A stretch of DNA of 64,000 bases from Eledone cirrhosa (lineage: Eukaryota): NCBI GenBank assembly GCA_964016885.1, contig OZ024740.1:432636001-432700000 (forward strand), in the 5' to 3' direction. Of the stretch, positions 7,524 to 64,000 are shown in pieces; the stretch's first letter is position 1, and the number at the start of each line of letters is the position of its first letter. Below the pieces are notes generated by a model, which saw only the letters and a program-made list of their open reading frames with translations, was not told the DNA's origin and made no database searches. The translations under genes and the position numbers were made by a program.

Positions 7524-7559
<36 letters not shown>

Positions 7560-9318: not shown

Positions 9319-9460
9319 GAAGGCTACTTAGCAACCACCAACATTCAACTAATAACTGACTTAAAGATAGATTTCTACTTCGAAATTGACAGAAAATTTA
9401 TGTCAACATTTAGTCACTGAATATATTTTCTAAGTATGACATGTCGCTTGCTCTCCCAGA

Positions 9461-10473: not shown

Positions 10474-10569
10474 GACAATGTTACGCAGATTAATATTAAA
10501 AGGTTTTATAAAACTATCAATAGAAGAAACAGTTTAGATAAAATACTTGGTTACAGAAAACAAACTTAC

Positions 10570-11099
10570 CCTTCTCAATTCTAGTTCTGTGTCACCATTT
10601 ATTTGCAGGGCAGCCATCTGACGGCCCTGATTAACTTGGACAGTTATGGCAGGGTAACGGGTGTTATCGTTACTATTAACAAAAGCACCATCAGAAAGAA
10701 AATCAGGAAGACTAGAAGCTAACTGAGGTTGAGAATCTTCTGAGTCACTTTTAAATGATAAATCATTTTCAATATTTGAAGAAGTGTTTGTCAGTTCATT
10801 TCTAATTTGGTGTTCCCCCAACAAAGTCCTGCGCCTTTCCTCAGCTTCATTATTAACCAAATCATTTTTTGTGTTGTTCAAATCACAACCACCAAGATAA
10901 TTAGCACTCAAAATACAGTTTGGAAGATCCAAGACATTCCGGTCTCGAGTGTCTCCGAAGTAGTGGTCCTGTACAAAATCTGGAAGGTCATGTGCAGCAC
11001 CATTATGGCGGCGGTTCTTACAACCAGAATGTGCAAGGAACTTTTTGAAGGAAAATGGGTTTCCATCTGCAGATTTCTTTTTTGGCTTTGATTTTCCAT
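10570..11099 (-). CDS. ENTR1: Internal coding exon of an ENTR1/SDCCAG3-like gene (endosome-associated trafficking regulator 1)
   Basis: Acceptor caaaaattattttcAG (11102-11100) and donor AGG|GTAAGT (10569). 530 nt, phase 1 in and phase 0 out, no stops. Encodes NPFSFKKFL, LPDFVQDH and LPDFLSD motifs, recalled as typical of SDCCAG3/ENTR1. Splices in frame to the coiled-coil exon. Confidence 0.8.
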
Positions 11100-11170
11100 C
11101 TGAAAATAATTTTTGATAAAGATATATATCAGTAAATGCTAGATGAATGCTCAATAATTCAATTAGTTAA

Positions 11171-14100
11171 GTCATGTAGGTGTCACAACAAAAGGTACCC
11201 AGTACACCCTGTAAAGTGGTCATGTAGGTGTCACAACAAAAGGTACCCAGTACACCCTGTAAAGTGGTCATGTAGGTGTCACAACAAAAGGTACCCAGTA
11301 CACCCTATAAAGTGGTCATGTAGGTGTCACAGCAAAAAGTACCCAGCCCACACTGTAAAGTGGTCATGTAGGTGTCACAACAAAATACACCCAGTACACA
11401 CTGTAAGGTGGTCATGTAGGTGTCACAACAAAAAATACCCAGCACACACTGTAAAGTGTTCATGTAGGTGTCACAACAAACAACACCCAGTAAACACTGT
11501 AAAGTGGTCATGCAGGTGTCACAACAAAAAATACCCAGCACACACTGTAAAGTGTTCATGTAGGTGTCACAACAAACAACACCCAGTACACACTCTAAAG
11601 TGGTCATGTAGGTGTCACAACAAAAGGAACCCAGTACACACTGTAAAGTGGTCATGTAGGTGTCACAACAAACAACACCCAGTACACACTGTAAAGTGGT
11701 AAGGTAGGTGTCACAACAAAAGGTACAGAGCACACACTGTAAAGTGGTCGTGTAGGTGTCACAACAAAAAGTACCCAGCACACACTGTAAAGTGGTCATG
11801 TAGGTGTCACAACAAAAGGTACCTAGCACACACTGTAAAGTGGTCATGTAGGTGTCACAGCAAAAAGTACCCAGCACACACTGTAAAGTGGTCATGTAGG
11901 TGCCACAATAAACAACACCCAGCACACACTGTAAAGTGATGATGTAGGTGTCACAACAAAAGGTACCCATCATACACTAAAGTGGTCCTGTAGGTGTCAA
12001 AACAAAAGGTACCCAGCACACACTGTAAAGTGGTCATGTAGGTATCACAACAAAAGGTACCCAGCACACACTGTAAAGTGGTCATGTAGGTATCACAACA
12101 AACAACACCCAGTACACAATGTAAAGTGGTCATGTAGGTGTAACAACAAACAACATCCAGAACACACTGTAAAGTGGTCATGTAGGTGTCACAACAAAAG
12201 GTACCCAGTACACACTGTAAAGTGGTCATGTAGGTGTCACAACAAACAACACACAGAACACACTGTAAAGTGGTCATGTAGGTGTCACAACAAAAGTACC
12301 CAGTACACACTGTAAAGTAGTCATGTAGGTGTCACAACAAAAAATACCCAGCACACACTGTAAAGTGGTCATGTAGGTGTCACAACAAACAACACCCAGT
12401 CCACACTGTCAAGTGGTCATGTAGTTGTCACAACAAAAGATACCCATCATACACTATGTGGTCATGTAGGTGTCAAAACAAAAAGTACTCAGCACACGCT
12501 GTAGAGTGGTCATGTAGGTGTCACAACAAAAAATACCCAGTCCACACTGTAGAGTGGTCATGTAGGGGTCACAACAAAAGGTACTCAGCACACACTGTAA
12601 AGTGGTCATGTAGGTGTCACAACAAAAGGTACCCAGCACACACTGTAAAGTGGTTATGTAGATGTCACAACAAAAGGTACCCGGTACACACTGTAAAGTG
12701 GTCATGTAGGTGTCACAACAAAAAGTACCCAGCACACACTGTAAAGTGGTTATGTAGATGTCACAACAAAAGGTACCCAGTACACACTGTAAAGTGGTCA
12801 TGTAGGTGTCACAACAAAAGCACCAAGTACACACTGTAAAGTGGTCATGTAGGTGTCACAACAAACAACACCCAGTACACACTGTAAAGTGGTCATGTAG
12901 GTGTCACAACAAAAGGTACCCAGCACACACTGTAAAGTGGTCATGTAGGTGTCACAACAAAAAGTACCCAGCACACACGGTAGAGTGGTCATGTAGATTT
13001 CACAACAAAAGGTACCCAGTACACACTGTAATGTGGTCATGTAGGTGTCACAACAAAAAGTACCCAGCACACACTGTAAAGTGGTCATTTAAGTGTCACA
13101 ACAAAAAGTACCCAGTGCACTCTGTAAATTGGTCATGTAGGTGTCACAACAAAAGGTACCCAGGACACACTGTAAAGTGGTTATGTAGATGTCACAACAA
13201 AAGGTACCCAGCACACACTGTAAAGTGTTCATGTAGGTGTCAGAACAAACAACACCCAGTACACACTGTAAAGTGGTCAGGTAGGTGTCACAACAAAAGG
13301 TACCCAGCACACACAGTAAAGTGGTCATGTAGGTGTCACAACAAACAACACCCAGTACACACTGTAAAGTGGTCAGGTAGGTGTCACAACAAAAGGTACA
13401 CAGCACACACTGTAAAGTGGCCGTGTAGGTGTCACAACAAAAAGTACCCAGCACACACTGTAAAGTGGTCATGTAGGTGTCACAACAAAAGGCACCCAGT
13501 ACACACTGTTAAGTGGGCATGTAGGTGTCACAACAAAAGGTACCCAGTACACACTGTAAAGTGGTCATGTAGGTGTCACAACAAAAAGTACCCAGAACAC
13601 ACTGTAAAGTGGTCATGTAGGTGTCACAACAAACAACACCCAGTCCACACTGTAAAGTGGTCATGTAGGTGTCACACCAAAAGGTACCCAGCCCACGCTG
13701 TTAAGTGGGTATGTAGGTATCACAACAAAAGGTACTCAGCACACACTGTAAAGTGGTCATGTAGGTGTCACAACAAAAGGTACCCAGTACACACTGTAAA
13801 GTGGTCATGTAGGTGTCACAACAAACAACACCCAGTACACACTGTAAAGTGGTCAGGTAGGTGTCACAACAAAAGGTACCCAGCCCACACTGTAAAGTGG
13901 TCATGTAGGTGTAGCAACAAAGGGTACCCAGTACACACTGTAAAGTGGTCATGTAGGTGTCACAACAAACACCACCCAGTACACACTGTAAAGTGGTCAT
14001 GCAGGTGTCACAACAAAAAATACCCAGCACACACTGTAAAGTGGTCATGTAGGGGTCGCAACAAATGGTACTCAGCACACACTGTAAAGTGGTCATGTAG

Positions 14101-17100
14101 GTGTCACAACAAAAGGTACCCAGCACACACTGTAAAGTGGTTATGTAGATGTCACAACAAAAGGTACCCGGTACACACTGTAAAGTGGTCATGTAGGTGT
14201 CACAACAAAAGGTACCCAGAACACACTGTAAAGTGGTCATGTAGGTGTCACAACAAAAAGTACTCAGCACACACTGAAAAGTGGTCATGTAGGTATCACA
14301 ACAAAAAGTACCCAGTCCACACTGTAGAGTGGTCATGTAGGGGTCGCAACAAATGGTACTCAGCACACACTGTAAAGTGGTCATGTAGGTGTCACAACAA
14401 AAGGTACCCAGCACACACTGTAAAGTGGTTATGTAGATGTCACAACAAAAGGTACCCGGTACACACTGTAAAGTGGTCATGTAGGTGTCACAACAAAATG
14501 TACCCAGCACACACTGTAAAGTGGTTATGTAGATGTCACAACAAAAGGTACCCAGCACACACTGTAAAGTGGTCATGTAGGTGTCACAACAAAAAGTACC
14601 CAGCACACACTGTAAAGTGGTCATGTAGGTGTCACAACAAAAGGTACCCAGTACACACTGTAAAGTGTTCATGTAGGTGTGACAACAAACAAAACCCAGT
14701 CCACACTGTAAAGTGGTCAGGTAGGTGTCACAACAAAAGGTACCCAGCACACACGGTAAAGTGGTCATGTAGGTGTCACAACAAACAACACCCAGTACAC
14801 ACTCTAAAGTGGTCATGTAGGTGTCACAACAAAAGGAACCCAGTACACACTGTAAAGTGGTCATGTAGGTGTCACAACAAACAACACCCAGTACACACTG
14901 TAAAGTGCTAAGGTAGGTGTCACAACAAACAACACACAGCATACACTGTAAAGTGGTCGTGTAGGTGTCACAACAAAAAGTACCCAGCACACACTGTAAA
15001 GTGGTCATGTAGGTGTCACAACAAAAGGTACCTAGCACACACTGTAAAGTGGTCATGTAGGTGTCACAGCAAAAAGTACCCAGCACACACTGTAAAGTAG
15101 TCATGTACGTGCCACAATAAACAACACCCAGCACACACTGTAGAGTGATCATGTAGGTGTCACAACAAAAGGTACCCATCATACACTAAAGTGGTCCTGT
15201 AGATGTCAAAACAAAAGGTACCCAGCACACACTGTAAAGTGGTCATGTAGGTATCACAACAAACAACACCCAGTACACAATGTAAAGTGGTCATGTAGGT
15301 GTAACAACAAACAACATCCAGTACACACTGTAAAGTGGTCATGTAGGTGTCACAACAAAAGGTACCCAGTACACACTGTAAAGTGGTCATGTAGGTGTCA
15401 CAACAAACAACACACAGAACACACTCTAAAGTGGTCATGTAGGTGTCACAACAAAAGTACCCAGTACACACTGTAAAGTAGTCACGTAGGTGTCACAACA
15501 AAAAATACCCAGCACACACTGTAAAGTGGTCATGTAGGTGTCACAACAAACAACACCCAGTCCACACTGTCAAGTGGTCATGTAGTTGTCACAACAAAAG
15601 ATACCCATCATACACTATGTGGTCATGTAGGTGTCAAAACAAAAAGTACTCAGCACACGCTGTAGAGTGGTCATGTAGGTGTCACAACAAAAAATACCCA
15701 GTCCACACTGTAGAGTGGTCATGTAGGGGTCATAACAAAAGGTACTCAGCACACACTGTAAAGTGGTCATGTAGGTGTCACAACAAAAGCACCCAGTACA
15801 CGCTCTAAAGTGGTCATGCAGGTGTCACAACAAACAACACCCAGTACACACTGTAAAGTGGTCATGTAGGTGTCACAACAAACAACACCCAGAACACACT
15901 GTAAAGTGGTCATGCAGGTGTCACAACAAAAAATACCCAGCACACACTGTAAAGTGTTCATGTAGGAGACACAATAAACAACACCCAGTACACACTGTAA
16001 AGTGGTCAGGTAGGTGTCACAACAAAAGGTACCCAGCACACACTGTAAAGTGGTCATGTAGGTGTCACAACAAAAAGTACTCAGCACACACTGTAAAGTG
16101 GTCATGTAGGTGTCACAACAAAAAGCAACCACTACACACTGTAGAGTGGTCATGTAGGGTTAACAACAAAAGGTACTCAGCACACACTGTAAAGTGGTCA
16201 TGTAGGTGTCACAACAAAAGGTACCCAGCACACACTGTAAAGTGGTTATGTAGATGTCACAACAAAAGGTACCCAGTACACACTGTAAAGTGGTTATGTA
16301 GGTGTCACAACAAAAAGTACCCATCACACACTGTATAGTGGTCATGTAGGTGTCACAACAAAAAGTACCCAGCACACACTGTAAAGTGGTCATGTAGGTG
16401 TCACAACAAAAAGTACCCAGAACACACTGTAAAGTGGTCATGTAGGTGTCACAACAAAAGGTACCCAGCCCATACTGTAAAGTGGTCATGTAGGTGTCAC
16501 AACAAACAACACCCAGAACACACTGTAAAGTGGTCATGTAGGTGTCACAACAAAAGGTACCTAGCACACACTGTAAAGTGGTCATGTAGGTGTCACAGCA
16601 AAAAGTACCCAGCACACACTGTAAAGTGGTCATGTAGGTGCCACAACAAACAACACCCAGCACACACTGTAAAGTGATCATGTAGGTGTCACAACAAAAG
16701 GTACCCATCATTCACTAAAGTGGTCCTGTAGGTGTCAAAACAAAAGGTACCCAGCACACACTGTAAAGTGGTCATGTAGGTATCACAACCAAAGGTACCC
16801 AGCACACACTGTAAAGTGGTCATGTAGGTATCACAACAAACAACACCCAGTACACAATGTAAAGTGGTCATGTAGGTGTAACAACAAACAACATCCAGTA
16901 CACAATGTAAAGTGGTCATGTAGGTGTCACAACAAAAGGTACCCAGTACACACTGTAAAGTGGTCATGTAGGTGTCACAACAAACAACACACAGAACACA
17001 CTGTAAAGTGGTCATGTAGGTGTCACAACAAAAGGTACCCAGTACACACTGTAAAGTGGTCATATAGGTGTCACAACAAAAAATACCCAGCACACACTGT

Positions 17101-20100
17101 AAATTGGTCAGGTAGGTGTCACAACAAACAACACCCAGTCCACACTGTCAAGTGGTCATGTAGGTGTCACAACAAAAGGTACCCAGGACACACTGTAAAG
17201 TGGTTATGTAGATGTCACAACAAAAGGTACCCAGCACACACTGTAAAGTGGTCAGGTACGTGTCACAACAAAAGGTACCCAGCACACACAGTAAAGTGGT
17301 CATGTAGGTGTCACAACAAACAACACCCAGTACACACTGTAAAGTGGTCATGTAGGTGTCACAACAAAAGGTACACAGCACACACTGTAAAGTGGTCGTG
17401 TAGGTGTCACAACAAAAAGTACCCAGCACACACTGTAAAGTGGTCATGTAGGTGTCACAACAAAAGGTACCCAGTACACACTGTTAAGTGGGCATGTAGG
17501 TGTCACAACAAAAGTTACCCAGTACACACTGTAAAGTGGTCATGTAGGTGTCACAACAAAAAGTACCCAGAACACACTGTAAAGTGGTCATGTAGGTGTC
17601 ACAACAAACAACACCCAGTCCACACTGTAAAGTGGTCATGTAGGTGTCACACCAAAAGGTACCCAGCCCACACTGTAAAGTGGTCAGGTAGGTGTCGCAA
17701 CAAATGGTACCCAGCACACACTGTAAAGTGGTCATGTAGGTGTCACAACAAAAGGTACCCAGTACACACTGTTAAGTGGGCATGTAGGTATCACAACAAA
17801 AGGTACTCAGCACACACTGTAAAGTGGTCATGTAGGTGTCACAACAAAAGGTACCCAGTACACACCGTAAAGTGGTCATGTAGGTGTCACAACAAAAAAT
17901 ACCCAGCACAAACTGTAAAGTGGTCATGTAGGTGTCACAACAAACAACACCCAGTACACACTGTAAAGTGGTCAGGTAGGTGTCACAACAAAAGGTACCC
18001 AGCCCACACTGTAAAGTGGTCATGTAGGTGTAGCAACAAAGGGTACCCAGTACACACTGTAAAGTGGTCATGTAGGTGTCACAACAAACACCACCCAGTA
18101 CACACTGTAAAGTGGTCATGCAGGTGTCACAACAAAAAATACCCAGCACACACTGTAAAGTGGTCATGTAGGGGTCGCAACAAATGGTACTCAGCACACA
18201 CTGTAAAGTGGTCATGTAGGTGTCACAACAAAAGGTACCCAGCACACACTGTAAAGTGGTTATGTAGATGTCACAACAAAAAATACCCAGCACACACTGT
18301 AAAGTGGTCATGTAGGTGTCACAACAAAAAGTACCCAGCACACACTGTAAAGTGGTCATGTAGGTGTCACAAAAAGGTACCCAGTACACACTGTAAAGTG
18401 GTCATGTAGGTGTCACAAGAAAAAGTACCCAGCACACACTGTAAAGTGTTCATGTAGGTGTGACAACAAACAAAACCCAGTACACACTGTAAAGTGGTCA
18501 GGTAGGTGTCACAACAAAAGGTACCCAGCACACAGGGTAAAGTGGTCATGTAGGTGTCACAACAAAAAACACCCAGTACACACTCTAAAGTGGTCATGTA
18601 GGTGTCACAACAAAAGGAACCCAGTACACACTGTAAAGTGGTCATGTAGGTGTCACAACAAACAACACCCAGTACACACTGTAAAGTGGTAAGGTAGGTG
18701 TCACAACAAACAACACACAGCACACACTGTAAAGTGGTCGTGTAGGTGTCACAACAAAATGTACCCATCATACACTAAAGTGGTCCTGTAGGTGTCAAAA
18801 CAAAAGGTACCCAGCACACACTGTAAAGTGGTCATGTAGGTATCACAACAAAAGGTACTCAGCACACACTGTAAAGTGGTCATGTAGGTATCACAACAAA
18901 CAACACCCAGTACACAATGTAAAGTGGTCATGTAGGTGTAACAACAAACAACATCCAGTACACACTGTAAAGTGGTCATGTAGGTGTCACAACAAAAGGT
19001 ACCCAGTACACACTGTAAAGTGGTCATGTAGGTGTCACAACAAACAACACACAGAACACACTGTAAAGTGGTCATGTAGGTGTCACAACAAAAGTACCCA
19101 GTACACACTGTAAAGTAGTCATGTAGGTGTCACAACAAAAAATACCCAGCACACACTGTAAAGTGGTCATGTAGGTGTCACAACAAACAACACCCAGTCC
19201 ACACTGTCAAGTGGTCATGTAGTTGTCACAACAAAAGATACCCATCATACACTATGTGGTCATGTAGGTGTCAAAACAAAAAGTACTCAGCACACGCTGT
19301 AGAGTGGTCATGTAGGTGTCACAACAAAAAATACCCAGTCCACACTGTAGAGTGGTCATGTAGGGGTCACAACAAAAGGTACTCAGCACACACTGTAAAG
19401 TGGTCATGTAGGTGTCACAACAAAAGCACCCAGTACACGCTCTAAAGTGGACATGCAGGTGTCACAACAAACAACACCCAGTACACACTGTAAAGTGGTC
19501 ATGTAGGTGTCACAACAAACAACACCCAGAACACACTGTAAAGTGGTCATGCAGGTGTCACAACAAAAAATACCCAGCACACACTGTAAAGTGTTCATGT
19601 AGGAGTCACAATAAACAACACCCAGTACACACTGTAAAGTGGTCAGGTAGGTGTCACAACAAAAGGTACCCAGCACACACTGTAAAGTGGTCATGTAGGT
19701 GTCACAACAAAAAGTACTCAGCACACACTGTAAAGTGGTCATGTAGGTGTCACAACAAAAAGCAACCACTACACACTGTAGAGTGGTCATGTAGGGGTAA
19801 CAACAAAAGGTACTCAGCACACACTGTAAAGTGGTCATGTAGGTGTCACAACAAAAGGTACCCAGCACACACTGTAAAGTGGTTATGTAGATGTCACAAC
19901 AAAAGGTACCCAGTACACACTGTAAAGTGGTTATGTAGGTGTCACAACAAAAAGTACCCAGCACACACTGTAAAGTGGTCATGTAGGTGTCACAACAAAA
20001 AGTACCCAGCACACACTGTAAAGTGGTCATGTAGGTGTCACAACAAAAAGTACCCAGAACACACTGTAAAGTGGTCATGTAGGTGTCACAACAAAAGGTA

Positions 20101-23100
20101 CCCAGCCCATACTGTAAAGTGGTCATGTACGTGTCACAACAAACAACACCCAGAACACACTGTAAAGTGGTCATGTAGGTGTCACAACAAAAGGTACCTA
20201 GCACACACTGTAAAGTGGTCATGTAGGTGTCACAGCAAAAAGTACCCAGCACACACTGTAAAGTGGTCATGTAGGTGCCACAACAAACAACACCCAGCAC
20301 ACACTGTAAAGTGATCATGTAGGTGTCACAACAAAAGGTACCCATCATACACTAAAGTGGTCCTGTAGGTGTCAAAACAAAAGGTACCCAGCACACACTG
20401 TAAAGTGGTCATGTAGGTATCACAACAAAAGGTACCCAGCACACACTGTAAAATGGTCATGTAGGTATCACAACAAACAACACCCAGTACACAATGTAAA
20501 GTGGTCATGTAGGTGTAACAACAAACAACATCCAGTACACAATGTAAAGTGGTCATGTAGGTCTCACAACAAACAAGACACAGAACACACTGTAAAGTGG
20601 TCATGTAGGTGTCACAACAAAAGGTACCCAGTACACACTGTAAAGTGGTCATGTAGGTGTCACAACAAAAAATACCCAGCACACACTGTAAATTGGTCAT
20701 GTAGGTGTCACAACAAACAACACCCAGTCCACACTGTCAAGTGGTCATGTAGGTGTCACAACAAAAGGTACCCAGGACACACTGTAAAGTGGTTATGTAG
20801 ATGTCACAACAAAAGGTACCCAGCACACACTGTAAAGTGGTCATGTAGGTGTCACAACAAACAACACCCAGTACACACTGTAAAGTGGTCATGTAGGTGT
20901 CACAACAAAAGGAACCCAGTATACATTGTAAAGTGGTCATGTAGGTGTCACAACAAAAGGTACCCAGTACACACTGTAAAGTGGTCATGTAGGTGTCACA
21001 ACAAAAGGTACCCAGCACACTCTGTAAAGTGGTTATGTAGATGTCACAACAAAAGGTACCCAGTACACACTGTAAAGTGGTCATGTAGGTGTCACAACAA
21101 AAGGTACCCAGTACACACTGTTAAGTGGGCATGTAGGTGTCACAACAAACAACACCCAGTCCACACTGTCAAGTGGTCATGTAGGTGTCACAACAAAAGG
21201 TACCCAGGACACACTGTAAAGTGGTTATGTAGATGTCACAACAAAAGGTACCCAGCACACACTGTAAAGTGGTCATGTAGGTGTCACAACAAACAACACC
21301 CAGTACACACTGTAAAGTGGTCATGTAGGTGTCACAACAAAAGGAACCCAGTATACATTGTAAAGTGGTCATGTAGGTGTCACAACAAAAGGTACCCAGT
21401 ACACACTGTAAAGTGGTCATGTAGGTGTCACAACAAAAAGTACCCAGCACACACTGTAAAGTGGTCATGTAGGTGTCACAAAAAGGTACCCAGTACACAC
21501 TGTAAAGTGGTCATGTAGGTGTCACAAGAAAAAGTACCCAGCACACACTGTAAAGTGTTCATGTAGGTGTGACAACAAACAAAACCCAGTACACACTGTA
21601 AAGTGGTCAGGTAGGTGTCACAACAAAAGGTACCCAGCACACAGGGTAAAGTGGTCATGTAGGTGTCACAACAAAAAACACCCAGTACACACTCTAAAGT
21701 GGTCATGTAGGTGTCACAACAAAAGGAACCCAGTACACACTGTAAAGTGGTCATGTAGGTGTCACAACAAACAACACCCAGTACACACTGTAAAGTGGTA
21801 AGGTAGGTGTCACAACAAACAACACACAGCACACACTGTAAAGTGGTCGTGTAGGTGTCACAACAAAATGTACCCATCATACACTAAAGTGGTCCTGTAG
21901 GTGTCAAAACAAAAGGTACCCAGCACACACTGTAAAGTGGTCATGTAGGTATCACAACAAAAGGTACTCAGCACACACTGTAAAGTGGTCATGTAGGTAT
22001 CACAACAAACAACACCCAGTACACAATGTAAAGTGGTCATGTAGGTGTAACAACAAACAACATCCAGTACACACTGTAAAGTGGTCATGTAGGTGTCACA
22101 ACAAAAGGTACCCAGTACACACTGTAAAGTGGTCATGTAGGTGTCACAACAAACAACACACAGAACACACTGTAAAGTGGTCATGTAGGTGTCACAACAA
22201 AAGTACCCAGTACACACTGTAAAGTAGTCATGTAGGTGTCACAACAAAAAATACCCAGCACACACTGTAAAGTGGTCATGTAGGTGTCACAACAAACAAC
22301 ACCCAGTCCACACTGTCAAGTGGTCATGTAGTTGTCACAACAAAAGATACCCATCATACACTATGTGGTCATGTAGGTGTCAAAACAAAAAGTACTCAGC
22401 ACACGCTGTAGAGTGGTCATGTAGGTGTCACAACAAAAAATACCCAGTCCACACTGTAGAGTGGTCATGTAGGGGTCACAACAAAAGGTACTCAGCACAC
22501 ACTGTAAAGTGGTCATGTAGGTGTCACAACAAAAGCACCCAGTACACGCTCTAAAGTGGACATGCAGGTGTCACAACAAACAACACCCAGTACACACTGT
22601 AAAGTGGTCATGTAGGTGTCACAACAAACAACACCCAGAACACACTGTAAAGTGGTCATGCAGGTGTCACAACAAAAAATACCCAGCACACACTGTAAAG
22701 TGTTCATGTAGGAGTCACAATAAACAACACCCAGTACACACTGTAAAGTGGTCAGGTAGGTGTCACAACAAAAGGTACCCAGCACACACTGTAAAGTGGT
22801 CATGTAGGTGTCACAACAAAAAGTACTCAGCACACACTGTAAAGTGGTCATGTAGGTGTCACAACAAAAAGCAACCACTACACACTGTAGAGTGGTCATG
22901 TAGGGGTAACAACAAAAGGTACTCAGCACACACTGTAAAGTGGTCATGTAGGTGTCACAACAAAAGGTACCCAGCACACACTGTAAAGTGGTTATGTAGA
23001 TGTCACAACAAAAGGTACCCAGTACACACTGTAAAGTGGTTATGTAGGTGTCACAACAAAAAGTACCCAGCACACACTGTAAAGTGGTCATGTAGGTGTC

Positions 23101-50100: not shown

Positions 50101-53100
50101 CACACTGTAAAGTGTTCATGTAGGAGTCACAACAAACAACACCCAGTACACACTGTAAAGTGGTCAAGTAGGTGTCACAACAAAAGGTACGCAGTACACA
50201 CTGTAAAGTGGTCATGTAGGTGTCACAACAAAAAGTACCCAGTCCACACTGTAGAGTGGTCATCTAGGGGTCACAACAAAAGGTACTCAGCACACACTGT
50301 AAAGTGGTCATGTAGATGTCACAACAAAAGGTACCCAGTACACACTGTAAAGTGGTCATGTAGGTGTCACAACAAAAGGAACCCAGCACACACTGTAAAG
50401 TGGTTATGTAGATGTCACAACAAAAGGTACCCAGTACACACTGTAAAGTGGTCAAGTAGGTGTCACAACAAAAACACCCAGTTCACACTGTAAAGTGGTC
50501 ATGTGGGTGTCACAACAAACAACACCCAGTACACACTGTAAAGTGGTCAGGTAGGTGTCACAACAAAGGTACCCAGCACACACTGTAAAGTGGTCATGTA
50601 GGTGTCAAAACAAAAAGTACCCAGCACAGACTGTCAAGTGGTCATGTAGGTGTCACAACAAAAAGTACCCAGTGCACTCTGTAAATTGGTCATGTAGGTG
50701 TCACAACAAAAGGTACCCAGCACACACTGTAAAGTGGTTATGTAGATGTCACAAAAAAAGGTACCCAGTACACACTGTAAAGTGGTCATGTAGGTGTCAC
50801 AACAAAAGCACCCAGTACACACTGTAAAGTGGTCATGTAGGTGTCACAACAAACAACACCCAGTACACACTGTAAAGTGGTCAGGTAGGTGTCACAACAA
50901 AAGGTACCCAGCACACACTGTAAAGTGGTCATGTAGGTGTCACAACAAAAAGTACCCAGCACACACGGTAAAGTGGTCATGTAGGTGTCACAACAAAAAG
51001 TACCCAGTACACACGGTAAAGTGGTCATGTAGGTGTCACAACAAAAAGTACTCAGCACACTGTAAAGTGGTCATGTAGGTGTCACAACAAAAAATACCAA
51101 GTCCACACTGTAGAGTGATCATGTAGGGGTCACAACAAAAGGTATTCAGCACACACTGTAAAGTGGTCATGTAGGTGTCACAACAAAAGGTACCCAGCAC
51201 ACACTGTAAAGTGGTCATGTAGGTGTCAAAACAAAAAGTACCCAGCACACACTGTAAAGTGGTCATGTAGGTGTCACAACAAAAAGTACCCAGTGCACTC
51301 TGTAAATTGGTCATGTAGGTGTCACAACAAAAGGTACTCAGTACACACTGTAAAGTGGTCATGTAGGTGTCACAACAAACAACATCCAGTCCACACTGTA
51401 AAGTGGTAACGTAGGTGTCACACAAAAGGTACCCAGTCCACACTGTAGAGTGGTCATGTAGGGGTCACAACAAAAGGTACTCAGTACACACTGTAAAGTG
51501 GTCATGTAGGTGTCACAACAAAAGCACCAAGTACACACTGTAATGTGGTCATGTAGGTGTCACAACAAACAACACACAGTACACACTGTAAAGTGGTCAT
51601 GTAGGTGTCACAACAAAAGGTACCCAGCACACACTGTAAAGTGGTCATGTAGGTGTCACAACAAAAAGTACCCAGCACACACGGTAAAGTGGTCATGTAG
51701 GTCTCACAACAAAAGGTACCCAGTACACACTGTAAAGTGGTCATGTAGGTGTCACAACAAAAAGTACCCAGCACACACTGTAAAGTGGTCATGTAGGTGT
51801 CACAACAAACACCACCCAGTCAACACTGTAAAGTGGTCATCTAGGAATCACAAAAAAAAGTCCCCAGCACACATGGTGAAGTGGTCATGTAGGTGTCACA
51901 ACAAACAACACCCAGTACACACTGTGAAGTGGTCATGTAGGTGTCACAACAAAAAGTACCCAGTGCACTCTGTAAATTGGTCATGTAGGTGTCACAACAA
52001 AAGGTACCCATCACACACTGTAAAGTGGTTATGTAGATGTCACCACAAAAGGTACCCAGTACACACTGTAAAGTGGTCATGTAGGTGTCACAACAAAAGC
52101 ACCCAGTACACACTGTAAAGTGGTCATGTAGGTGTCACAACAAACAATACCCAGAACACACTGTAAAGTGGTCATGCAGGTGTCACAACAAAAAATACCC
52201 AGCACACACTGTAAAGTGTTCATGTAGGTGTCACAACGAACAACACCCAGTACACACTGTAAAGTGGTCAAGTAGGTGTCACAACAAAAGTTACGCAGTA
52301 CACACTGTAAAGTGGTCATGTAGGTGTCACAACAAACAACATCCAGTCCACACTGTAAAGTGGTAATGTAGGTGTCACACAAAAGGTACCCAGCCCACAC
52401 TGTAAAGTGGTCATGTAGGTGTCACAACAAAGGGTACCCAGTACACACTGTAAAGTGGTCATGTAGGTGTCACAACAAAGGGTACCCAGTACACACTGTA
52501 AAGTGGTCATGTAGGTGTCAAAATAAAAAGTACTCAGAACAGTGTAAAGTGGTCATGTAGGTGTCACAACAAAAAATACCAAGTCCACACTGTAGAGTGG
52601 TCTGGCAGGGGTCACAACAAAAGGTACTCAGCACACACTGTAAAGTGGTCATGTAGGTGTCACAACAAAAGGTACCCAGCACACACTGTAAAGTGGTTAT
52701 GTAGATGTCACAACAAAAGGTACCCGGTACACACTGTAAAGTGGTCATGTAGGTGTCACAACAAAAAGTACTCAGCACACACTGTAAAGTGGTCATGTAG
52801 GTGTCAAAACAAAAAGTACCCAGCACACACTGTAAAGTGGTCATGTAGGTGTCACAACAAAAAGTACCCAGTGCACTCTGTAAATTGGTCATGTAGGTGA
52901 CACAACAAAAGGTACCCAGCACACACTGTAAAGTGGTTATGTAGATGTCACAACAAAAGGTACCCAGTACACACTGTAAAGTGGTCATGTAGGTGTCACA
53001 ACAAAAGCACCCAGTACACACTGTATAGTGGTCATGTAGGTGTCACAACAAAAAGTACGCAGTCCACACTGTAGAGTGGTCATCTAGGGGTCACAAGAAA

Positions 53101-56100
53101 AGGTACTCAGCACACACTGTAAAGTGGTCATGTAGGTGTCACAACAAAAATTACCCAGCACACACGGTAAAGTGGTCATGCAGGTGTCACAACAAAAGGT
53201 ACCCAGTCCACACTGTAAAGTGGTCATGTAGGTGTCACAACAAAAAGTACCAAGTACACACTGTAAAGTGGTCATGTAGGTATCACAACAAACACCACCC
53301 AGTCAACACTGTAAAGTGGTCAGCTAGGAATCACAACAAAAAGTCCCCAGCACACACGGTGAAGTGGTCATGTAGGTGTCACAACAAACAACACCCAGTA
53401 CACACTGTAAAGTGGTTATGTAGGTGTCACAACAAACAATACCCAGAACACACTGTAAAGTGGACATGCAGGAATCACAACAAAAAATAGCCAGCACACA
53501 CTGTAAAGTGTTCATGTAGGAGTCACAACAAACAACACCCAGTACACACTGTAAAGTGGTCAAGTAGGTGTCACAACAAAAGGTACGCAGTACACACTGT
53601 AAAGTGGTCATGTAGGTGTCACAACAAAAAGTACCCAGTCCACACTGTAGAGTGGTCATCTAGGGGTCACAACAAAAGGTACTCAGCACACACTGTAAAG
53701 TGGTCATGTAGGTGTCACAACAAAAGGAACCCAGCACACACTGTAAAGTGGTTATGTAGATGTCACAACAAAAGGTACCCAGTACACACTGTAAAGTGGT
53801 CAAGTAGGTGTCACAACAAAAACACCCAGTTCACACTGTAAAGTGGTCATGTGGGTGTCACAACAAACAACACCCAGTACACACTGTAAAGTGGTCAGGT
53901 AGGTGTCACAACAAAGGTACCCAGCACACACTGTAAAGTGGTCATGTAGGTGTCAAAACAAAAAGTACCCAGCACAGACTGTCAAGTGGTCATGTAGGTG
54001 TCACAACAAAAAGTACCCAGTGCACTCTGTAAATTGGTCATGTAGGTGTCACAACAAAAGGTACCCAGCACACACTGTAAAGTGGTTATGTAGATGTCAC
54101 AAAAAAAGGTACCCAGTACACACTGTAAAGTGGTCATGTAGGTGTCACAACAAAAGCACCCAGTACACACTGTAAAGTGGTCATGTAGGTGTCACAACAA
54201 ACAACACCCAGTACACACTGTAAAGTGGTCAGGTAGGTGTCACAACAAAAGGTACCCAGCACACACTGTAAAGTGGTCATGTAGGTGTCACAACAAAAAG
54301 TACCCAGCACACACGGTAAAGTGGTCATGTAGGTGTCACAACAAAAAGTACCCAGTACACACGGTAAAGTGGTCATGTAGGTGTCACAACAAAAAGTACC
54401 CAGCACACACTGTAAAGTGGTCATGAAGGTGTCACAACAAACAATACCAAGAACACACTGTAAAGTGGTCATACAGGTGTCACAACAAAAAATACCCAGC
54501 ACACACTGTAAAGTGTTCATGTAGGAGTCACAACAAACAACACCCAGTACACACTGTAAAGTGGTCAAGTAGGTGTCACAACAAAAGGTACGCAGTACAC
54601 ATTGTAAAGTGGTCATGTAGGTGTCACAACAAAAAGTACTCAGCACACTGTAAATTGGTCATGTAGGTGTCACAACAAAAAGTACCCAGCACACACGGTA
54701 AAGTGGTCATGTAGGTCTCACAACAAAAGGTTCCCAGTACACGTTGTAAAGTGGTCATGTAGGTGTCACAACAAAAAGTACTCAGCACACTGTAAAGTGG
54801 TCATGTAGGTGTCACAACAGAAAATACCAAGTCCACACTGTAGAGTGATCATGTAGGGGTCACAACAAAAGGTATTCAGCACACACTGTAAAGTGGTCAT
54901 GTAGGTGTCACAACAAAAGGTACCCAGCACACACTGTAAAGTGGTCATGTAGGTGTCAAAACAAAAAGTACCCAGCACACACTGTAAAGTGGTCATGTAG
55001 GTGTCACAACAAAAAGTACCCAGTGCACTCTGTAAATTGGTCATGTAGGTGTCACAACAAAAGGTACTCAGTACACACTGTAAAGTGGTCATGTAGGTGT
55101 CACAACAAACAACATCCAGTCCACACAGTAAAGTGGTAATGTAGGTGTCACACAAAAGGTACCCAGTCCACACTGTAGAGTGGTCATGTATGGGTCACAA
55201 CAAACAACACCCAGTACACACTGTAAAGTGGTCATGTAGGTGTCACAACAAAAGGTACCCAGCACACACTGTAAAGTGGTCATGTAGGTGTCACAACAAA
55301 AAGTACCCAGCACACACGGTAAAGTGGTCATGTAGGTCTCACAACAAAAGGTACCCAGTACACACTGTAATGTGGTCATGTAGGTGTCACAACAAAAAGT
55401 ACCCAGCACACACTGTAAAGTGGTCATGTAGGTGTCACAACAAACACCACCCAGTCAACACCGTAAAGTGGTCAGCTAGGAATCACAACAAAAGGTCCCC
55501 AGCACACACGGTGAAGTGGTCATGTAGGTGTCACAACAAACAACACCCAGTACACACTGTAAAGTGGTCATGTAGGTGTCACAACAAAAGGAACCCAGCA
55601 CACACTGTAAAGTGGTTATGTAGATGTCACAACAAAAGGTACCCAGTACACACTGTAAAGTGGTCAAGTAGGTGTCACAACAAAAACACCCAGTTCACAC
55701 TGTAAAGTGGTCATGTGGGTGTCACAACAAACAACACCCAGTACACACTGTAAAGTGGTCAGGTAGGTGTCACAACAAAGGTACCCAGCACACACTGTAA
55801 AGTGGTCATGTAGGTGTCAAAACAAAAAGTACCCAGCACAGACTGTCAAGTGGTCATGTAGGTGTCACAACAAAAAGTACCCAGTGCACTCTGTAAATTG
55901 GTCATGTAGGTGTCACAACAAAAGGTACCCAGCACACACTGTAAAGTGGTTATGTAGATGTCACAAAAAAAGGTACCCAGTACACACTGTAAAGTGGTCA
56001 TGTAGGTGTCACAACAAAAGCACCCAGTACACACTGTAAAGTGGTCATGTAGGTGTCACAACAAACAACACCCAGTACACACTGTAAAGTGGTCAGGTAG

Positions 56101-59100
56101 GTGTCACAACAAAAGGTACCCAGCACACACTGTAAAGTGGTCATGTAGGTGTCACAACAAAAAGTACCCAGCACACACGGTAAAGTGGTCATGTAGGTGT
56201 CACAACAAAAAGTACCCAGTACACACGGTAAAGTGGTCATGTAGGTGTCACAACAAAAAGTACCCAGCACACACTGTAAAGTGGTCATGAAGGTGTCACA
56301 ACAAACAATACCAAGAACACACTGTAAAGTGGTCATACAGGTGTCACAACAAAAAATACCCAGCACACACTGTAAAGTGTTCATGTAGGAGTCACAACAA
56401 ACAACACCCAGTACACACTGTAAAGTGGTCAAGTAGGTGTCACAACAAAAGGTACGCAGTACACATTGTAAAGTGGTCATGTAGGTGTCACAACAAAAAG
56501 TACTCAGCACACTGTAAATTGGTCATGTAGGTGTCACAACAAAAAGTACCCAGCACACACGGTAAAGTGGTCATGTAGGTCTCACAACAAAAGGTTCCCA
56601 GTACACGTTGTAAAGTGGTCATGTAGGTGTCACAACAAAAAGTACTCAGCACACTGTAAAGTGGTCATGTAGGTGTCACAACAGAAAATACCAAGTCCAC
56701 ACTGTAGAGTGATCATGTAGGGGTCACAACAAAAGGTATTCAGCACACACTGTAAAGTGGTCATGTAGGTGTCACAACAAAAGGTACCCAGCACACACTG
56801 TAAAGTGGTCATGTAGGTGTCAAAACAAAAAGTACCCAGCACACACTGTAAAGTGGTCATGTAGGTGTCACAACAAAAAGTACCCAGTGCACTCTGTAAA
56901 TTGGTCATGTAGGTGTCACAACAAAAGGTACTCAGTACACACTGTAAAGTGGTCATGTAGGTGTCACAACAAACAACATCCAGTCCACACAGTAAAGTGG
57001 TAATGTAGGTGTCACACAAAAGGTACCCAGTCCACACTGTAGAGTGGTCATGTATGGGTCACAACAAACAACACCCAGTACACACTGTAAAGTGGTCATG
57101 TAGGTGTCACAACAAAAGGTACCCAGCACACACTGTAAAGTGGTCATGTAGGTGTCACAACAAAAAGTACCCAGCACACACGGTAAAGTGGTCATGTAGG
57201 TCTCACAACAAAAGGTACCCAGTACACACTGTAATGTGGTCATGTAGGTGTCACAACAAAAAGTACCCAGCACACACTGTAAAGTGGTCATGTAGGTGTC
57301 ACAACAAACACCACCCAGTCAACACCGTAAAGTGGTCAGCTAGGAATCACAACAAAAGGTCCCCAGCACACACGGTGAAGTGGTCATGTAGGTGTCACAA
57401 CAAACAACACCCAGTACACACTGTAAAGTGGTCATGTAGGTGTCACAACAAACAATACCCAGAACACACTGTAAAGTGGTCATGCAGGTGTCACAACAAA
57501 AAATACCCAGCACACACTATAAAGTGGTCAAGTAGGTGTCACAACAAAAGGTACGCAGTACACACTGTAAAGTGGTCATGTAGGTGTCACACAAAAGGTA
57601 CCCAGCCCACACTGTAAAGTGGTCATGTAGGTGTCACAACAAAGGGTACCCAGTACACACTGTAAAGTGGTCATGTAGGTGTCACAACAAAAAGTACTCA
57701 GCACACTGAAAAGTGGTCATGTAGGTGTCACAACAAAAAATACCAAGTCCACACTGCAGAGTGGTCATGTAGGGGTCACAAGAAAAGGTATTCAGCCCAC
57801 ACTGTAAAGTGGTCATGTAGGTGTCACAACAAAAGGTACCCAGCACACACTGTAAAGTGGTCATGTAGGTGTCAAAACAAAAAGTACCCAGCACACACTG
57901 TAAAGTGGTCATGTAGGTGTCACAACAAAAAGTAACCAGTGCACTCTGTAAATTGGTCATGTAGGTGTCACAACAAAAGGTACCCATCACACACTGTAAA
58001 GTGGTTATGTACATGTCACAACAAAAGCACCCAGTACACACTGTAAAGTGGTCATGTAGGTGTCACAACAAAAAATACCCAGTCCACACTGTAGAGTGGT
58101 CATGTAGGGGTCACAACAAAAGGTACTCAGTACACACTGTAAAGTGGTCATGTAGGTGTCACAACAAAAGCACCAAGTACACACTGTAAAGTGGTCATGT
58201 AGGTGTCACAACAAACAACACACAGTACACACTGTAAAGTGGTCATGTAGGTGTCACAACAAAAGCACCAAGTACACACTGTAAAGTGGTCATGTAGGTG
58301 TCACAACAAACAACACACAGTACACACTGTAAAGTGGTCATGTAGGTGTCACAACAAAAGGTACTCAGCACACACTGTAAAGTGGTCATGTAGGTGTCAC
58401 AACAAAAAGTACCCAGCACACACGGTAAAGTGGTCATGTAGGTCTCACAACAAAAGGTACCCAGTACACACTGTAAAGTGGTCATGTAGGTGTCACAACA
58501 AAAAGTACCCAGCACACACTGTAAAGTGGTCATGTAGGTGTCACAACAAACACCACCCAGTCAACACTGTAAAGTGGTCAGCTAGGAATCACAAAAAAAA
58601 GTCCCCAGCACACATGGTGAAGTGGTCATGTAGGTGTCACAACAAACAACACCCAGTACACACTGTAAAGTGGTCATGTAGGTGTCACAACAAACAATAC
58701 CCAGAACACACTGTAAAGTGGTCATGCAGGTGTCACAACAAAAAATACCCAGCACACACTGTAAAGTGTTCATGTAGGAGTCACAACGAACAACACCCAG
58801 TACACACTGTAAAGTGGTCAAGTAGGTGTCACAACAAAAGTTACGCAGTACACTGTAAAGTGGTCATGTAGGTGTCACAACAAAAAGTACCCAGTCCACA
58901 CTGTAGAGTGGTCATCTAGGGGTCACAACAAAAGGTACTCAGCACACACTGTAAAGTGGTCATGTAGGTGTCACAACAAAAGGTACCCAGCACACACTGT
59001 AAAGTGGTTATGTAGATGTCACAACAAAAGGTACCCAGTACACACTGTAAAGTGGTCATGTAGGTGTCACAACAAAAGGTACCCAGCACAATCTGTAAAG

Positions 59101-62100
59101 TGGTCATGTAGGTGTCACAACAAACACCACCGTCAACACTGTAAAGTGGTCAGCTAGGAATCACAACAAAAAGTCCCCAGCACACACGGTGAAGTGGTCA
59201 TGTAGGTGTCACAACAAACAACACCCAGTACACACTGTAAAGTGGTCAGGTAGCAATCACAACAACAAGTCCCCAGCACACACGGTGAAGTGGTCATGTA
59301 GGTGTCACAACAAAAAATACCCAGCACACACTGTAAAGTGTTCATGTAGGAGTCACAACAAACAACACCAAGTACACACTGTAAAGTGGTCATGTAGGTG
59401 TCACAACAAAAGGTACCCAGTACACACTGTAAAGTGGTCAAGTAGGTGTCACAACAAAAACACCCAGTACACATTGTAAAGTGGTCATGTGGGTGTCACA
59501 ACAAACAACACCCAGTACACACTGTAAAGTGGTCATGTAGGTGTCACAACAAAAGGTACCCAGCACACACTGTAAAGTGGTCATGTAGGTGTCACAAAAA
59601 AAGGTACCCAGTACACACTGTAAAGTGGTCATGTAGGTGTCACAACAAAAGCACCCAGTACACACTGTAAAGTGGTCATGTAGGTGTCACAACAAACAAC
59701 ACCCAGTACACACTGTAAAGTGGTCATGTAGGTGTCACAACAAAAAGTACCCAGCACACACGGTAAAGTGGTCATGTAGGTGTCACAACAAAAAGTACCC
59801 AGTACACACGGTAAAGTGGTCATGTAGGTGTCACAACAAAAAGTACCCAGCACACACTGTCAAGTGGTCATGAAGGTGTCACAACAAACAATACCAAGAA
59901 CACACTGTAAAGTGGTCATGCAGGTGTCACAACAAAAAATACCCAGCACACACTGTAAAGTGTTCATGTAGGAGTCACAACAAACAACACCCAGTACACA
60001 CTGTAAAGTGGTCAAGTAGGTGTCACAACAAAAGGTACGCAGTACACATTGTAAAGTGGTCATGTAGGTGTCACAACAAAAAGTACTCAGCACACTGTAA
60101 ATTGGTCATGTAGGTGTCACAACAAAAAGTACCCAGCACACACGGTAAAGTGGTCATGTAGGTCTCACAACAAAAGGTTCCCAGTACACGTTGTAAAGTG
60201 GTCATGTAGGTGTCACAACAAAAAGTACTCAGCACACTGTAAAGTGGTCATGTAGGTGTCACAACAGAAAATACCAAGTCCACACTGTAGAGTGATCATG
60301 TAGGGGTCACAACAAAAGGTATTCAGCACACACTGTAAAGTGGTCATGTAGGTGTCACAACAAAAGGTACCCAGCACACACTGTAAAGTGGTCATGTAGG
60401 TGTCAAAACAAAAAGTACCCAGCACACACTGTAAAGTGGTCATGTAGGTGTCACAACAAAAAGTACCCAGTGCACTCTGTAAATTGGTCATGTAGGTGTC
60501 ACAACAAAAGGTACTCAGTACACACTGTAAAGTGGTCATGTAGGTGTCACAACAAACAACATCCAGTCCACACAGTAAAGTGGTAATGTAGGTGTCACAC
60601 AAAAGGTACCCAGTCCACACTGTAGAGTGGTCATGTAGGGGTCACAACAAAAGGTACTCAGTACACACTGTAAAGTGGTCATGTAGGTGTCACAACAAAA
60701 GCACCAAGTACACACTGTAATGTGGTCATGTAGGTGTCACAACAAACAACACACAGTACACACTGTAAAGTGGTCATGTAGGTGTCACAACAAAAGGTAC
60801 CCAGCACACACTGTAAAGTGGTCATGTAGGTGTCACAACAAAAAGTACCCAGCACACACGGTAAAGTGGTCATGTAGGTCTCACAACAAAAGGTACCCAG
60901 TACACACTGTAAAGTGGTTATGTAGGTGTCACAACAAAAAGTACCCAGCACACACTGTAAAGTGGTCATGTAGGTGTCACAACAAACACCACCCAGTCAA
61001 CACTGTAAAGTGGTCAGCTAGGAATCACAACAAAAAGTACCCAGCACACACGGTAAAGTGGTCATGTAGGTGTCACAACAAAAACACCCAGTTCACACTG
61101 TAAAGTTGTCATGTGGGTGTCACAACAAACAACACCCAGTACACACTGTAAAGTGGTCAGGTAGGTGTCACAACAAAAGGTACCCAGCACACACTGTAAA
61201 GTGGTCATGTAGGTGTCACAACAAAAAGTACCCAGCACACACGGTAAAGTGGTCATGTAGGTGTCACAACAAAAAGTACCCAGTACACACGGTAAAGTGG
61301 TCATGTAGGTGTCACAACAAAAAGTACCCAGCACACACTGTAAAGTGGTCATGAAGGTGTCACAACAAACAATACCAAGAACACACTGTAAAGTGGTCAT
61401 GCAGGTGTCACAACAAAAAATACCCAGCACACACTGTAAAGTGTTCATGTAGGAGTCACAACAAACAACACCCAGTACACACTGTAAAGTGGTCAAGTAG
61501 GTGTCACAACAAAAGGTACGCAGTACACATTGTAAAGTGGTCATGTAGGTGTCACAACAAAAAGTACTCAGCACACTGTAAATTGGTCATGTAGGTGTCA
61601 CAACAAAAAGTACCCAGCACACACGGTAAAGTGGTCATGTAGGTCTCACAACAAAAGGTTCCCAGTACACGTTGTAAAGTGGTCATGTAGGTGTCACAAC
61701 AAAAAGTACTCAGCACACTGTAAAGTGGTCATGTAGGTGTCACAACAGAAAATACCAAGTCCACACTGTAGAGTGATCATGTAGGGGTCACAACAAAAGG
61801 TATTCAGCACACACTGTAAAGTGGTCATGTAGGTGTCACAACAAAAGGTACCCAGCACACACTGTAAAGTGGTCATGTAGGTGTCAAAACAAAAAGTACC
61901 CAGCACACACTGTAAAGTGGTCATGTAGGTGTCACAACAAAAAGTACCCAGTGCACTCTGTAAATTGGTCATGTAGGTGTCACAACAAAAGGTACTCAGT
62001 ACACACTGTAAAGTGGTCATGTAGGTGTCACAACAAACAACATCCAGTCCACACAGTAAAGTGGTAATGTAGGTGTCACACAAAAGGTACCCAGTCCACA

Positions 62101-64000
62101 CTGTAGAGTGGTCATGTAGGGGTCACAACAAAAGGTACTCAGTACACACTGTAAAGTGGTCATGTAGGTGTCACAACAAAAGCACCAAGTACACACTGTA
62201 ATGTGGTCATGTAGGTGTCACAACAAACAACACACAGTACACACTGTAAAGTGGTCATGTAGGTGTCACAACAAAAGGTACCCAGCACACACTGTAAAGT
62301 GGTCATGTAGGTGTCACAACAAAAAGTACCCAGCACACACGGTAAAGTGGTCATGTAGGTCTCACAACAAAAGGTACCCAGTACACACTGTAAAGTGGTT
62401 ATGTAGGTGTCACAACAAAAAGTACCCAGCACACACTGTAAAGTGGTCATGTAGGTGTCACAACAAACACCACCCAGTCAACACTGTAAAGTGGTCAGCT
62501 AGGAATCACAACAAAAAGTACCCAGCACACACGGTAAAGTGGTCATGTAGGTCTCACAACAAAAGGTACCCAGGACACACTGTAAAGTGGTCATGTAGGT
62601 GTCACAACAAAAAGTACCCAGCACACACTGTAAAGTGGTCATGTAGGTGTCACAACAAACACCACCCAGTCAACACTGTAAAGTGGTCATGTAGGTGTCA
62701 CAACAAACAACACCCAGTACACACTGTAAAGTGGTCATGTAGGTGTCACAACAAAAAGTACCCAGTGCACTCTGTAAATTGGTCATGTAGGTGTCACAAC
62801 AAAAGGTACCCATCACACACTGTAAAGTGGTTATGTAGATGTCACAACAAAAGGTACCCAGTACACACTGTAAAGTGGTCATGTAGGTGTCACAACAAAA
62901 GCACCCAGTACACACTGTAAAGTGGTCATGTAGGTGTCACAACAAAAAATACCCAGTCCACACTGTAGAGTGGTCATGTAGGGGTCACAACAAAAGGTAC
63001 TCAGTACACACTGTAAAGTGGTCATGTAGGTGTCACAACAAAAGCACCAAGTACACACTGTAAAGTGGTCATGTAGGTGTCACAACAAACAACACACAGT
63101 ACACACTGTAAAGTGGTCATGTAGGTGTCACAACAAAAGGTACCCAGCACACACTGTAAAGTGGTCATGTAGGTGTCACAACAAAAAGTACCCAGCACAC
63201 ACGGTAAAGTGCTCATGTAGGTTTCACAACAAAAGGTACCCAGTACACACTGTAAAGTGGTCATGTAGGTGTCACAAGAAAAAGTACCCAGCACACACTG
63301 TAAAGTGGTCATGTAGGTGTCACAACAAACACCACCCAGTCAACACTGTAAAGTGGTCAGCTAGGAATCACAAAAAAAAGTCCCCAGCACACATGGTGAA
63401 GTGGTCATGTAGGTGTCACAACAAACAACACCCAGTACACACTGTAAAGTGGTCATGTAGGTGTCACAACAAACAATACCCAGAACACACTGTAAAGTGG
63501 TCATGCAGGTGCCACAACAAAAAATACCCAGCACACACTGTAAAGTGTTCATGTAGGAGTCACAACGAACAACACCCAGTACACACTGTAAAGTGGTCAA
63601 GTAGGTGTCACAACAAAAGTTACGCAGTACACACTGTAAAGTGGTCATGTAGGTGTCACAACAAACAACATCCAGTCCACACTGTAAAGTGGTAATGTAG
63701 GTGTCACACAAAAGGTACCCAGTCCACACTGTAAAGTGGTCATGTAGGTGTCACAACAAAGGGTACCCAGTACACACTGTAAAGTGGTCATGTAGGTGTC
63801 AAAATAAAAAGTACTCAGAACAGTGTAAAGTGGTCATGTAGGTGTCACAACAAAAAATACCAAGTCCACACTGTAGAGTGGTCATGCAGGGGTCACAACA
63901 AAAGGTACTCAGCACACACTGTAAAGTGGTCATGTAGGTGTCACAACAAAAGGTACCCAGCACACACTGTAAAGTGGTTATGTAGATGTCACAACAAAAG
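11171..64000 (+). repeat. 48-bp satellite DNA array, about 1,100 monomers, continuing past the window end
   Basis: Consensus GTCATGTAGGTGTCACAACAAA(AGGT/AAGT/CAAC)ACCCAG(C/T)ACACACTGTAAAGTG repeated head-to-tail in one orientation, with occasional shorter monomers and no visible interruption by other sequence. Confidence 0.99.

Follow-up and report, generated by a model that had tools for sequence, protein, structure and literature searches.

Intron 1 of ENTR1 in the octopod Eledone cirrhosa is 252,292 bases long as assembled, 96% of it (~241 kb) is tandem repeat, and the exons on either side of it are joined in messenger RNA (mRNA). The window, by which we mean the whole 64,000-base stretch analysed, holds the acceptor end of this intron; its positions 1-64000 correspond to C1:432636001-432700000, where C1 is contig OZ024740.1. 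C1 is chromosome-scale (442.9 Mb in a 3.0-Gb genome), and the ENTR1 locus lies ~10 Mb from its end. A first-pass annotation of the window had reported more than 52 kb of satellite inside an ENTR1 intron, beginning about 70 nucleotides from the splice acceptor of an exon that starts in phase 1, and had reasoned that an upstream exon must lie beyond the satellite. We read the sequence for 200 kb beyond the window, and compared the stretch with the contigs of six of 23 listed sequencing runs (X1, X4, X5, X6, X12 and X15). We propose that the arrays probably grew in place and are tolerated passengers, and that exon 1 is still spliced to exon 2, likely by ordinary exon definition once a transcript has read through the intron.

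To judge from its sequence, the gene is an intact, single-copy ENTR1 orthologue. Exon 2, at 11099-10570 on the minus strand, is 530 bases long, is preceded by AG and followed by GT, and runs from phase 1 to phase 0. It matches ENTR1 proteins, at 88% in Octopus bimaculoides and 86% in Argonauta hians (16 hits among 713 candidates), which bears out the assignment made at first pass; the name ENTR1 (SDCCAG3) is that given by the source databases' annotation, and Pfam assigns no family to the exon. Exon 2 occurs once in the genome, and ENTR1 is conserved across molluscs. Seven exons with consistent phases span residues 1-412 of the reference protein P0001 at 70-91% identity (tblastn) and total 1,236 bases, that is, 411 codons plus the stop (summed by hand, with exon 4 taken as 112 bases). 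The predicted upstream exon exists: 252,292 bases separate exon 2 from the first coding exon, which is on the same strand, begins with ATG, is 214 bases long, is of phase 1 and has a GT donor, and there is no N in the intron that separates it from exon 2. The exons and introns at this end of the gene are as follows.

Window 9829..9902, minus strand: ENTR1 exon 3, 74 bases, placed by tblastn to P0001, with AG/GT ends and 0 differences from the X4 contig.
Window 9903..10569, minus strand: ENTR1 intron 2, 667 bases, from the X4 joint 9902-10570, with ends CT..AC.
Window 10570..11099, minus strand: ENTR1 exon 2, 530 bases, single copy, from protein matches and the X4 contig.
Window 11100..64000, minus strand: the in-window part of ENTR1 intron 1, which continues to C1:432899391.
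C1:432899605-432899392: ENTR1 exon 1, the first coding exon.

A side observation concerns exon 2 itself: within window 10887-10948, 12 bases (four codons) that are present in relatives B, C, E and G are missing here.

Is the gene spliced across the repeats? A contig of run X4 (4,066 bases, depth 48.5) covers exons 2 and 3 with 0 differences and joins exons 1-2-3-4: at 11101 it continues in the letters of exon 1, and past exon 3 it continues in those of exon 4. This contig is a spliced transcript, and it supplies the RNA link across the array that had been called for as a check. Run X4 bears the same species label as the assembly, comes from a different sample, and has a library type that is not on record. 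The exon joints are the same in run X6, which is from another species. With seven intact exons and a spliced contig, the objection that these exons might be an unexpressed fragment fails. The other objection foreseen was a mis-join at 11171, where the satellite begins. In the DNA run X1 a single contig is identical to the stretch from 10500 to 11200, reaching 30 bases into the array with 0 differences, and 0 of the 180 aligned X1 contigs depart from the stretch. X1 may be the assembly's own source, and it therefore checks the junction against reads rather than against another animal.

From the acceptor outward, intron 1 consists of 71 unique bases, a first array (array A), a 1,574-base spacer, a second and larger array (array B), and 9,363 ordinary bases. 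Array A, the satellite seen at first pass, extends 16.5 kb past the end of the window; array B lies entirely beyond it and accounts for 71% of the bases that the two arrays occupy.

Window 11100..11170, minus strand: unique 3' end of intron 1, with the acceptor AG at 11101-11100; the X1 DNA contig is identical throughout.
Window 11171..64000, plus strand: in-window part of array A, 48-base unit, 1,104.5 copies inside the window.
C1:432647171-432716502: array A entire, 69,332 bases, 1,450 copies, on average 7.4% from the consensus.
C1:432718077-432890028: array B, 41-base unit, 171,952 bases, 4,194 copies, 3.1% from the consensus.

Both motifs that had been pointed out in the short unique segment are present. 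TACTGAT at 11134-11128 would place a putative branch A ~30 bases before the acceptor AG, with no intervening AG, and AACTAAT lies at 11168-11162. Relatives B and G align across this segment, and among the differences listed is a G at 11128, which turns the first motif into TACTGAC on the gene strand.

The two arrays differ in origin. The window contains, in intron 3, the 3' tail of a long interspersed nuclear element (LINE) that carries a similar module.

Window 8279..8580, plus strand: LINE 3' tail in which the 48-base module occurs twice; array A was compared with it.

The array A unit matches this two-copy module at ~79% identity (84 of 106 columns, counted by hand) and has the same orientation; it is thus antisense in the ENTR1 pre-mRNA, as had been suggested. 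The last array A unit, beyond the window, is followed directly by a remnant, with deletions, of the terminus of the LINE tail, which identifies array A as a module expanded inside a truncated LINE tail. The 48-base family is found genome-wide: a 30-base word matches exactly at 18,550 places, of which 584 fall in array A. In relative B, which is ~94% alike, a loose contig end at this place resembles the module, and the summed depth of the 48-base unit is high. The contigs of relatives E and G extend unbroken beyond the aligned part, by 477 and 278 bases, respectively, with no module in the 30 letters listed and no depth for the unit. The seed of array A is therefore likely to predate the split from relative B, as judged from one 30-letter loose end. 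A short (~5 copies) and diverged array of the 48-base module at window 9460-9695, ~130 bases from exon 3, is an unexpanded sibling of array A.

Array B, on the other hand, is private to the locus. All 2,426 of the 2,426 exact 30-base genome matches lie in intron 1, as do all 4,175 of the 4,175 genome matches of a 24-base word with up to 2 mismatches. A short-word search of the flanking DNA for the source of the 41-mer gave only chance matches of 11-15 bases. Exact repeated blocks of 1.5-5.9 kb occur in both arrays (five in array A, seven in array B), and both have sharp edges and a divergence that is even along their length; these three features would fit growth by block duplication.

How might such an intron have arisen and still be spliced? 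We propose that a truncated LINE tail carrying the 48-base module inserted in antisense orientation 71 bases from the acceptor, sparing the branch site and the AG. The module and, separately, a 41-base piece of the intron would then have been amplified as kilobase blocks, perhaps by unequal exchange or by repair-type duplication. In the product, RNA polymerase II (Pol II) would find no canonical signal to stop, and the intron would leave either whole or via non-canonical steps. The same process is likely at many loci, mostly near chromosome ends, a suggestion based on the arrays seen by sampling C1 and in two myosin genes (see below).

The signals on the transcribed strand are consistent with this proposal. 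The 241 kb of arrays A and B hold 0 AATAAA and a single ATTAAA. Canonical recursive splice sites (YAG followed by GTRAG) number 0 in the two arrays, the spacer and the unique parts of intron 1. The looser YAGGT occurs 14 times in array A, 0 times in array B, 7 times in the spacer and 16 times in the unique parts. In array B a donor-like motif is found 3,641 times on the untranscribed strand and 0 times on the transcribed one. Read as RNA, the transcribed strands of the two arrays are rich in U (T 0.37 and 0.42). We considered that arrays might be selected for orientation, and rejected this, as neither strand is preferred among 32 families of intronic arrays, drawn from five genes. Among the 15 families scored for the donor motif, it is sense in 7, antisense in 7 and tied in 1; T exceeds A in 19 of the 32 (p 0.38); and on neither strand does any array reach a density of one polyadenylation hexamer per kb. 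The lack of signals in the ENTR1 arrays is thus not demonstrated as selected, and the lack of strand preference is as expected for passenger arrays. Pol II elongates at 1-3 kb per minute, at which rate crossing intron 1 would take ~1.5-4 hours, and longer in the cold. ENTR1, presumably broadly expressed, is seen spliced in one sample of the species.

How unusual is this intron? Arrays are abundant toward the end of C1. In the last 20 Mb, 7 of 20 evenly spaced 8-kb samples lie wholly inside one array, compared with 2 of 20 interstitial samples, and arrays of at least 1 kb with units of at least 10 bases account for 50% of the bases near the contig end versus 22% of the interstitial bases. The units of the sampled arrays are all different. 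One further array on this contig, at C1:280000914-280008000, has a unit of ~1,950 bases whose copies are 94% alike. For control genes we searched four families, in which part of each gene was visible and only the best candidates were scored. Near the start of another contig, C3, consecutive exons of myosin-IX, placed by local tblastn on stretches of C3, lie ~145 kb apart (C3:1054933-1200165) with GT-AG ends and no gap, and the intron between them holds an 80,984-base array of a 40-mer. The next myosin-IX introns contain arrays with 29-, 59-, 48- and 42-base units, and most units of the 40-mer and the 29-mer have a donor-like GTGAG, in each case on the strand that is transcribed. Similarly, an array with a 45-base unit takes up at least 31 kb within the span of another myosin gene (C6:99967001-100003949), 2.6 Mb from the contig end. 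Samples of the large gaps in an adaptin gene on C4 and a myosin gene on C11 revealed no long minisatellite arrays filling them, and no large intron was found in the CCT/HSP60 and cullin genes. ENTR1 intron 1 therefore sits far out in the tail, yet is one member of a class, and similar introns are likely to be numerous in this octopod, an extrapolation from one verified case among 43 control loci.

Several observations weigh against the proposal that the arrays are harmless passengers of an ordinarily spliced intron. Array A presents 1,379 YAG decoys on the gene strand, the commonest in an acceptor-like context; the main transcript bypasses them, and the contigs from which we know this would mask minor mis-spliced forms. 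We infer, rather than observe, that Pol II reads through the entire intron: X4 comes from a different sample than the assembly, and its lack of cover over the 69 intron bases beyond the acceptor is uninformative on nascent RNA. Large introns are rare, with a gap of more than 60 kb in 4 of the 43 multi-exon control loci (a hand count), and arrays of more than 30 kb occur in 2 of those 4 gaps; three control loci near contig ends are without a large gap. This rarity makes some cost likely, and the neutrality of the arrays is itself argued from their abundance and from the absence of signal. Finally, the assembly is not error-free at arrays, as a piece of ENTR1 itself is likely mis-oriented. Relative to exon 5, exons 6-7 are 757 kb away and on the other strand, within a piece that has a 200-N gap at each end.

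C1:431844393-432604119: the flipped piece, partly read inside, bounded by gaps at 431844193-431844392 and 432604120-432604319.

If this piece is flipped, the same 27-base array continues across both gaps, so that a scaffolding mis-orientation of ~760 kb is likely. For the same reason we judged unlikely a real inversion breaking ENTR1. Intron 1 is unaffected by the piece.

The flipped piece bears on a broader alternative, in which the order of the parts is right, the array lengths are assembly artefacts and the true intron is much shorter or much longer than 252 kb. In its favour, the exact blocks of up to 5.9 kb, which recur at a 9,235-base offset, could be assembler duplications. We consider it unlikely, however, given that intron 1 is without N, that the two arrays contain 310 and 226 monomer types (134 and 73 of them seen once, respectively), and that 48% of the 300-mers in array A and 35% of the 400-mers in array B are unique words. 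Moreover, the 11171 junction is found in the DNA run, and a mis-join would require two compensating errors to reach exon 1, with array B offering no other locus to jump from. It is also conceivable that the giant intron serves regulation, acting to delay or dampen transcription and needing dedicated RNA-binding factors in the manner of Y-loop genes. Its size is within the range called gigantic in flies (PMC11207136), fly Y-loop genes need Blanks and Heph (PMC6508621), and the U-rich transcribed strands could recruit pyrimidine-tract binders. This explanation is quite improbable when set against the relatives E and G, whose contigs run on with no module in the 30 letters listed, the array units that differ at every locus, and the balance of strands across the 32 intronic families.

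The first-pass annotation had also suggested that the antisense modules could feed small RNAs, which would silence the LINE family. Array A does derive from a LINE tail module that is antisense in the transcript, and with 18,550 genome matches, sense partners for double-stranded RNA likely exist. However, of the 26-mers of array A compared with eight local LINE tails, none is perfect and 4.5% are within 2 mismatches, the median being 5; array A, with its 584 of the 18,550 family matches, would be a minor source; and 71% of the intron's array DNA is the 41-mer, for which the search of the flanks gave no relative. A small-RNA role of array A is unsupported in this comparison with local tails, a closer subfamily being conceivable elsewhere, and we regard the idea as very unlikely. 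Least probable of all, and to our minds hardly tenable, is that in array B the gene happens to straddle a satellite specific to this chromosome and centromeric or heterochromatic in kind. Although array B is long (172 kb), homogeneous (3.1% from its consensus) and confined to a single locus, many arrays of other units, tens of kb in length, are found in this part of C1 as well as on other chromosomes, and a spliced gene spans array B. We thus favour arrays that grew in place and are carried as passengers.

With what known systems can such an intron be compared? The closest known pattern is the sequence stuttering of avian dot-chromosome genes, in which local repeats are confined to introns and sometimes copy an exon edge (Hron et al. 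2026, PMC12954441); the intron worked through as an example measures 1.6-2.9 kb, and stuttering is there described in birds and gerbils only (PMC12954441). As in stuttering, repeats of tens of bases in ENTR1 were born locally in introns, exons are intact, one chromosomal compartment is involved, and an exon edge with its splice site has been copied (a 37-base unit holding the exon 4 acceptor, ~19 copies). Unlike the worked example, ENTR1 has single arrays of 69 and 172 kb, about a hundred times its size; and whereas the bird regions are GC-rich and without interspersed repeats (PMC12954441), here GC is 40-44% and array A comes from a LINE tail. Local origin, by which stuttering is recognized, is shown by array B, which is private; array A is not private, its family being genome-wide.

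The comparison with Drosophila Y-loop giant introns, drawn at first pass, holds for size but not for setting. Like kl-3 and kl-5, whose gigantic introns are filled with satellite (Fingerhut et al. 2019, PMC6508621; 2024, PMC11207136), ENTR1 has a short coding sequence interrupted by hundreds of kb of tandem repeat and yields a normal spliced mRNA; its intron, mostly tandem repeat as assembled and with flanking exons joined in mRNA, resembles the Y-loop type in these two respects. The fly genes differ in being Y-linked and expressed in spermatocytes, with up to megabases of 5-base satellites and dedicated factors, whereas ENTR1 is a conserved trafficking gene on a 443-Mb contig with units of 41 and 48 bases, one of them private to the locus, and its arrays are among many locus-specific arrays in the genome. 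Gigantic repeat-filled introns are also known in the Drosophila autosomal genes Pzl, Myo81F and Mitf, which are less sensitive to the loss of splicing factors (PMC11207136); those are three genes with assembly gaps, whereas ENTR1 intron 1 is gap-free. Likewise, in human genes such as PRIM2, MYO1E and VAV1, intronic alpha-satellite repeats that are dispersed or short, rare and of a centromeric family (PMC12653875) place satellite in the introns of ordinary somatic genes, but the ENTR1 arrays are huge and probably grew at the locus. Finally, chicken LL2R is a tandem array transcribed on one strand and poor in polyadenylation signals, with a non-coding unit, a retrotransposon promoter and donor sites that are rich on the transcribed strand (bioRxiv 10.64898/2026.03.19.712899); in array B, by contrast, which lies within a protein-coding gene, it is the untranscribed strand that bears the donor-like motif. 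A search by title and abstract opening, in which subscription journals were mostly not covered, found no report of satellite-filled introns in cephalopods, and one by title or abstract, of the same coverage, found none on such introns under intronic satellite in housekeeping genes or octopus LINE piRNA.

Satellite-filled giant introns have so far been studied mostly in fly testis genes, with special factors. Splicing of ENTR1 across ~241 kb of repeat, together with the second case on C3, points to a general splicing machinery that can handle introns of this kind, and to in-place array growth as a major way in which genes lengthen in this octopod. Because the 41-mer is private, nascent transcription, its speed and chromatin state can be measured at one locus. 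We tentatively entertain a wider idea, which we find conceivable rather than probable: a runaway stuttering at chromosome ends, in which hundreds of ordinary genes would carry locus-private arrays of 30-170 kb and be spliced in body cells without a Y-loop-like programme. Array B would then be a natural single-locus tag for Pol II crossing 172 kb of satellite, and array length would be a fast-changing dial on gene output. For annotation there is a warning, as exon 1 would be lost or split off at such introns, and scaffolds break and flip at arrays.

Elsewhere in the gene, introns 3 and 5 hold more arrays, and the units differ among introns 1, 3 and 5. The 37-base array at exon 4 (C1:432616289-432617024, 19.5 copies) has a unit that holds the exon 4 acceptor and the first bases of the exon, and the X4 transcript splices at the final copy only. 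Upstream of the gene, two arrays occupy C1:432901559-432973282: a 29-kb array of a 37-mer, which begins 1.95 kb before the ATG, and after it one of 41 kb with units of 12-27 bases. The ENTR1 promoter lies either in the ~2-kb gap before the upstream 37-mer array or at a non-coding exon beyond the arrays.

The GC content across the window is 0.30-0.47, and several further LINE pieces are present.

Window ~1400-1780, plus strand: LINE tail.
Window 2440-2860, minus strand: LINE tail.
Window 6930-7140, minus strand: LINE tail.
Window 3242..5557, minus strand: LINE reading frame in intron 3, a putative RTE by its first-pass label, with Pfam Exo_endo_phos (endonuclease) and RVT_1 (reverse transcriptase) only, in one frame.

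Also in intron 3, window 77-1422 on the minus strand contains reverse transcriptase fragments (483-1241) and a weak GIY-YIG match (77-388), and is likely a broken Penelope-like element. Finally, we note that an AT-rich repeat of 19-21 bases trails or interrupts the LINE tails at window 1766-2434, 6516-7684 and 8576-9318, as well as in the left flank, and looks as if it had grown from the LINE tail's end.

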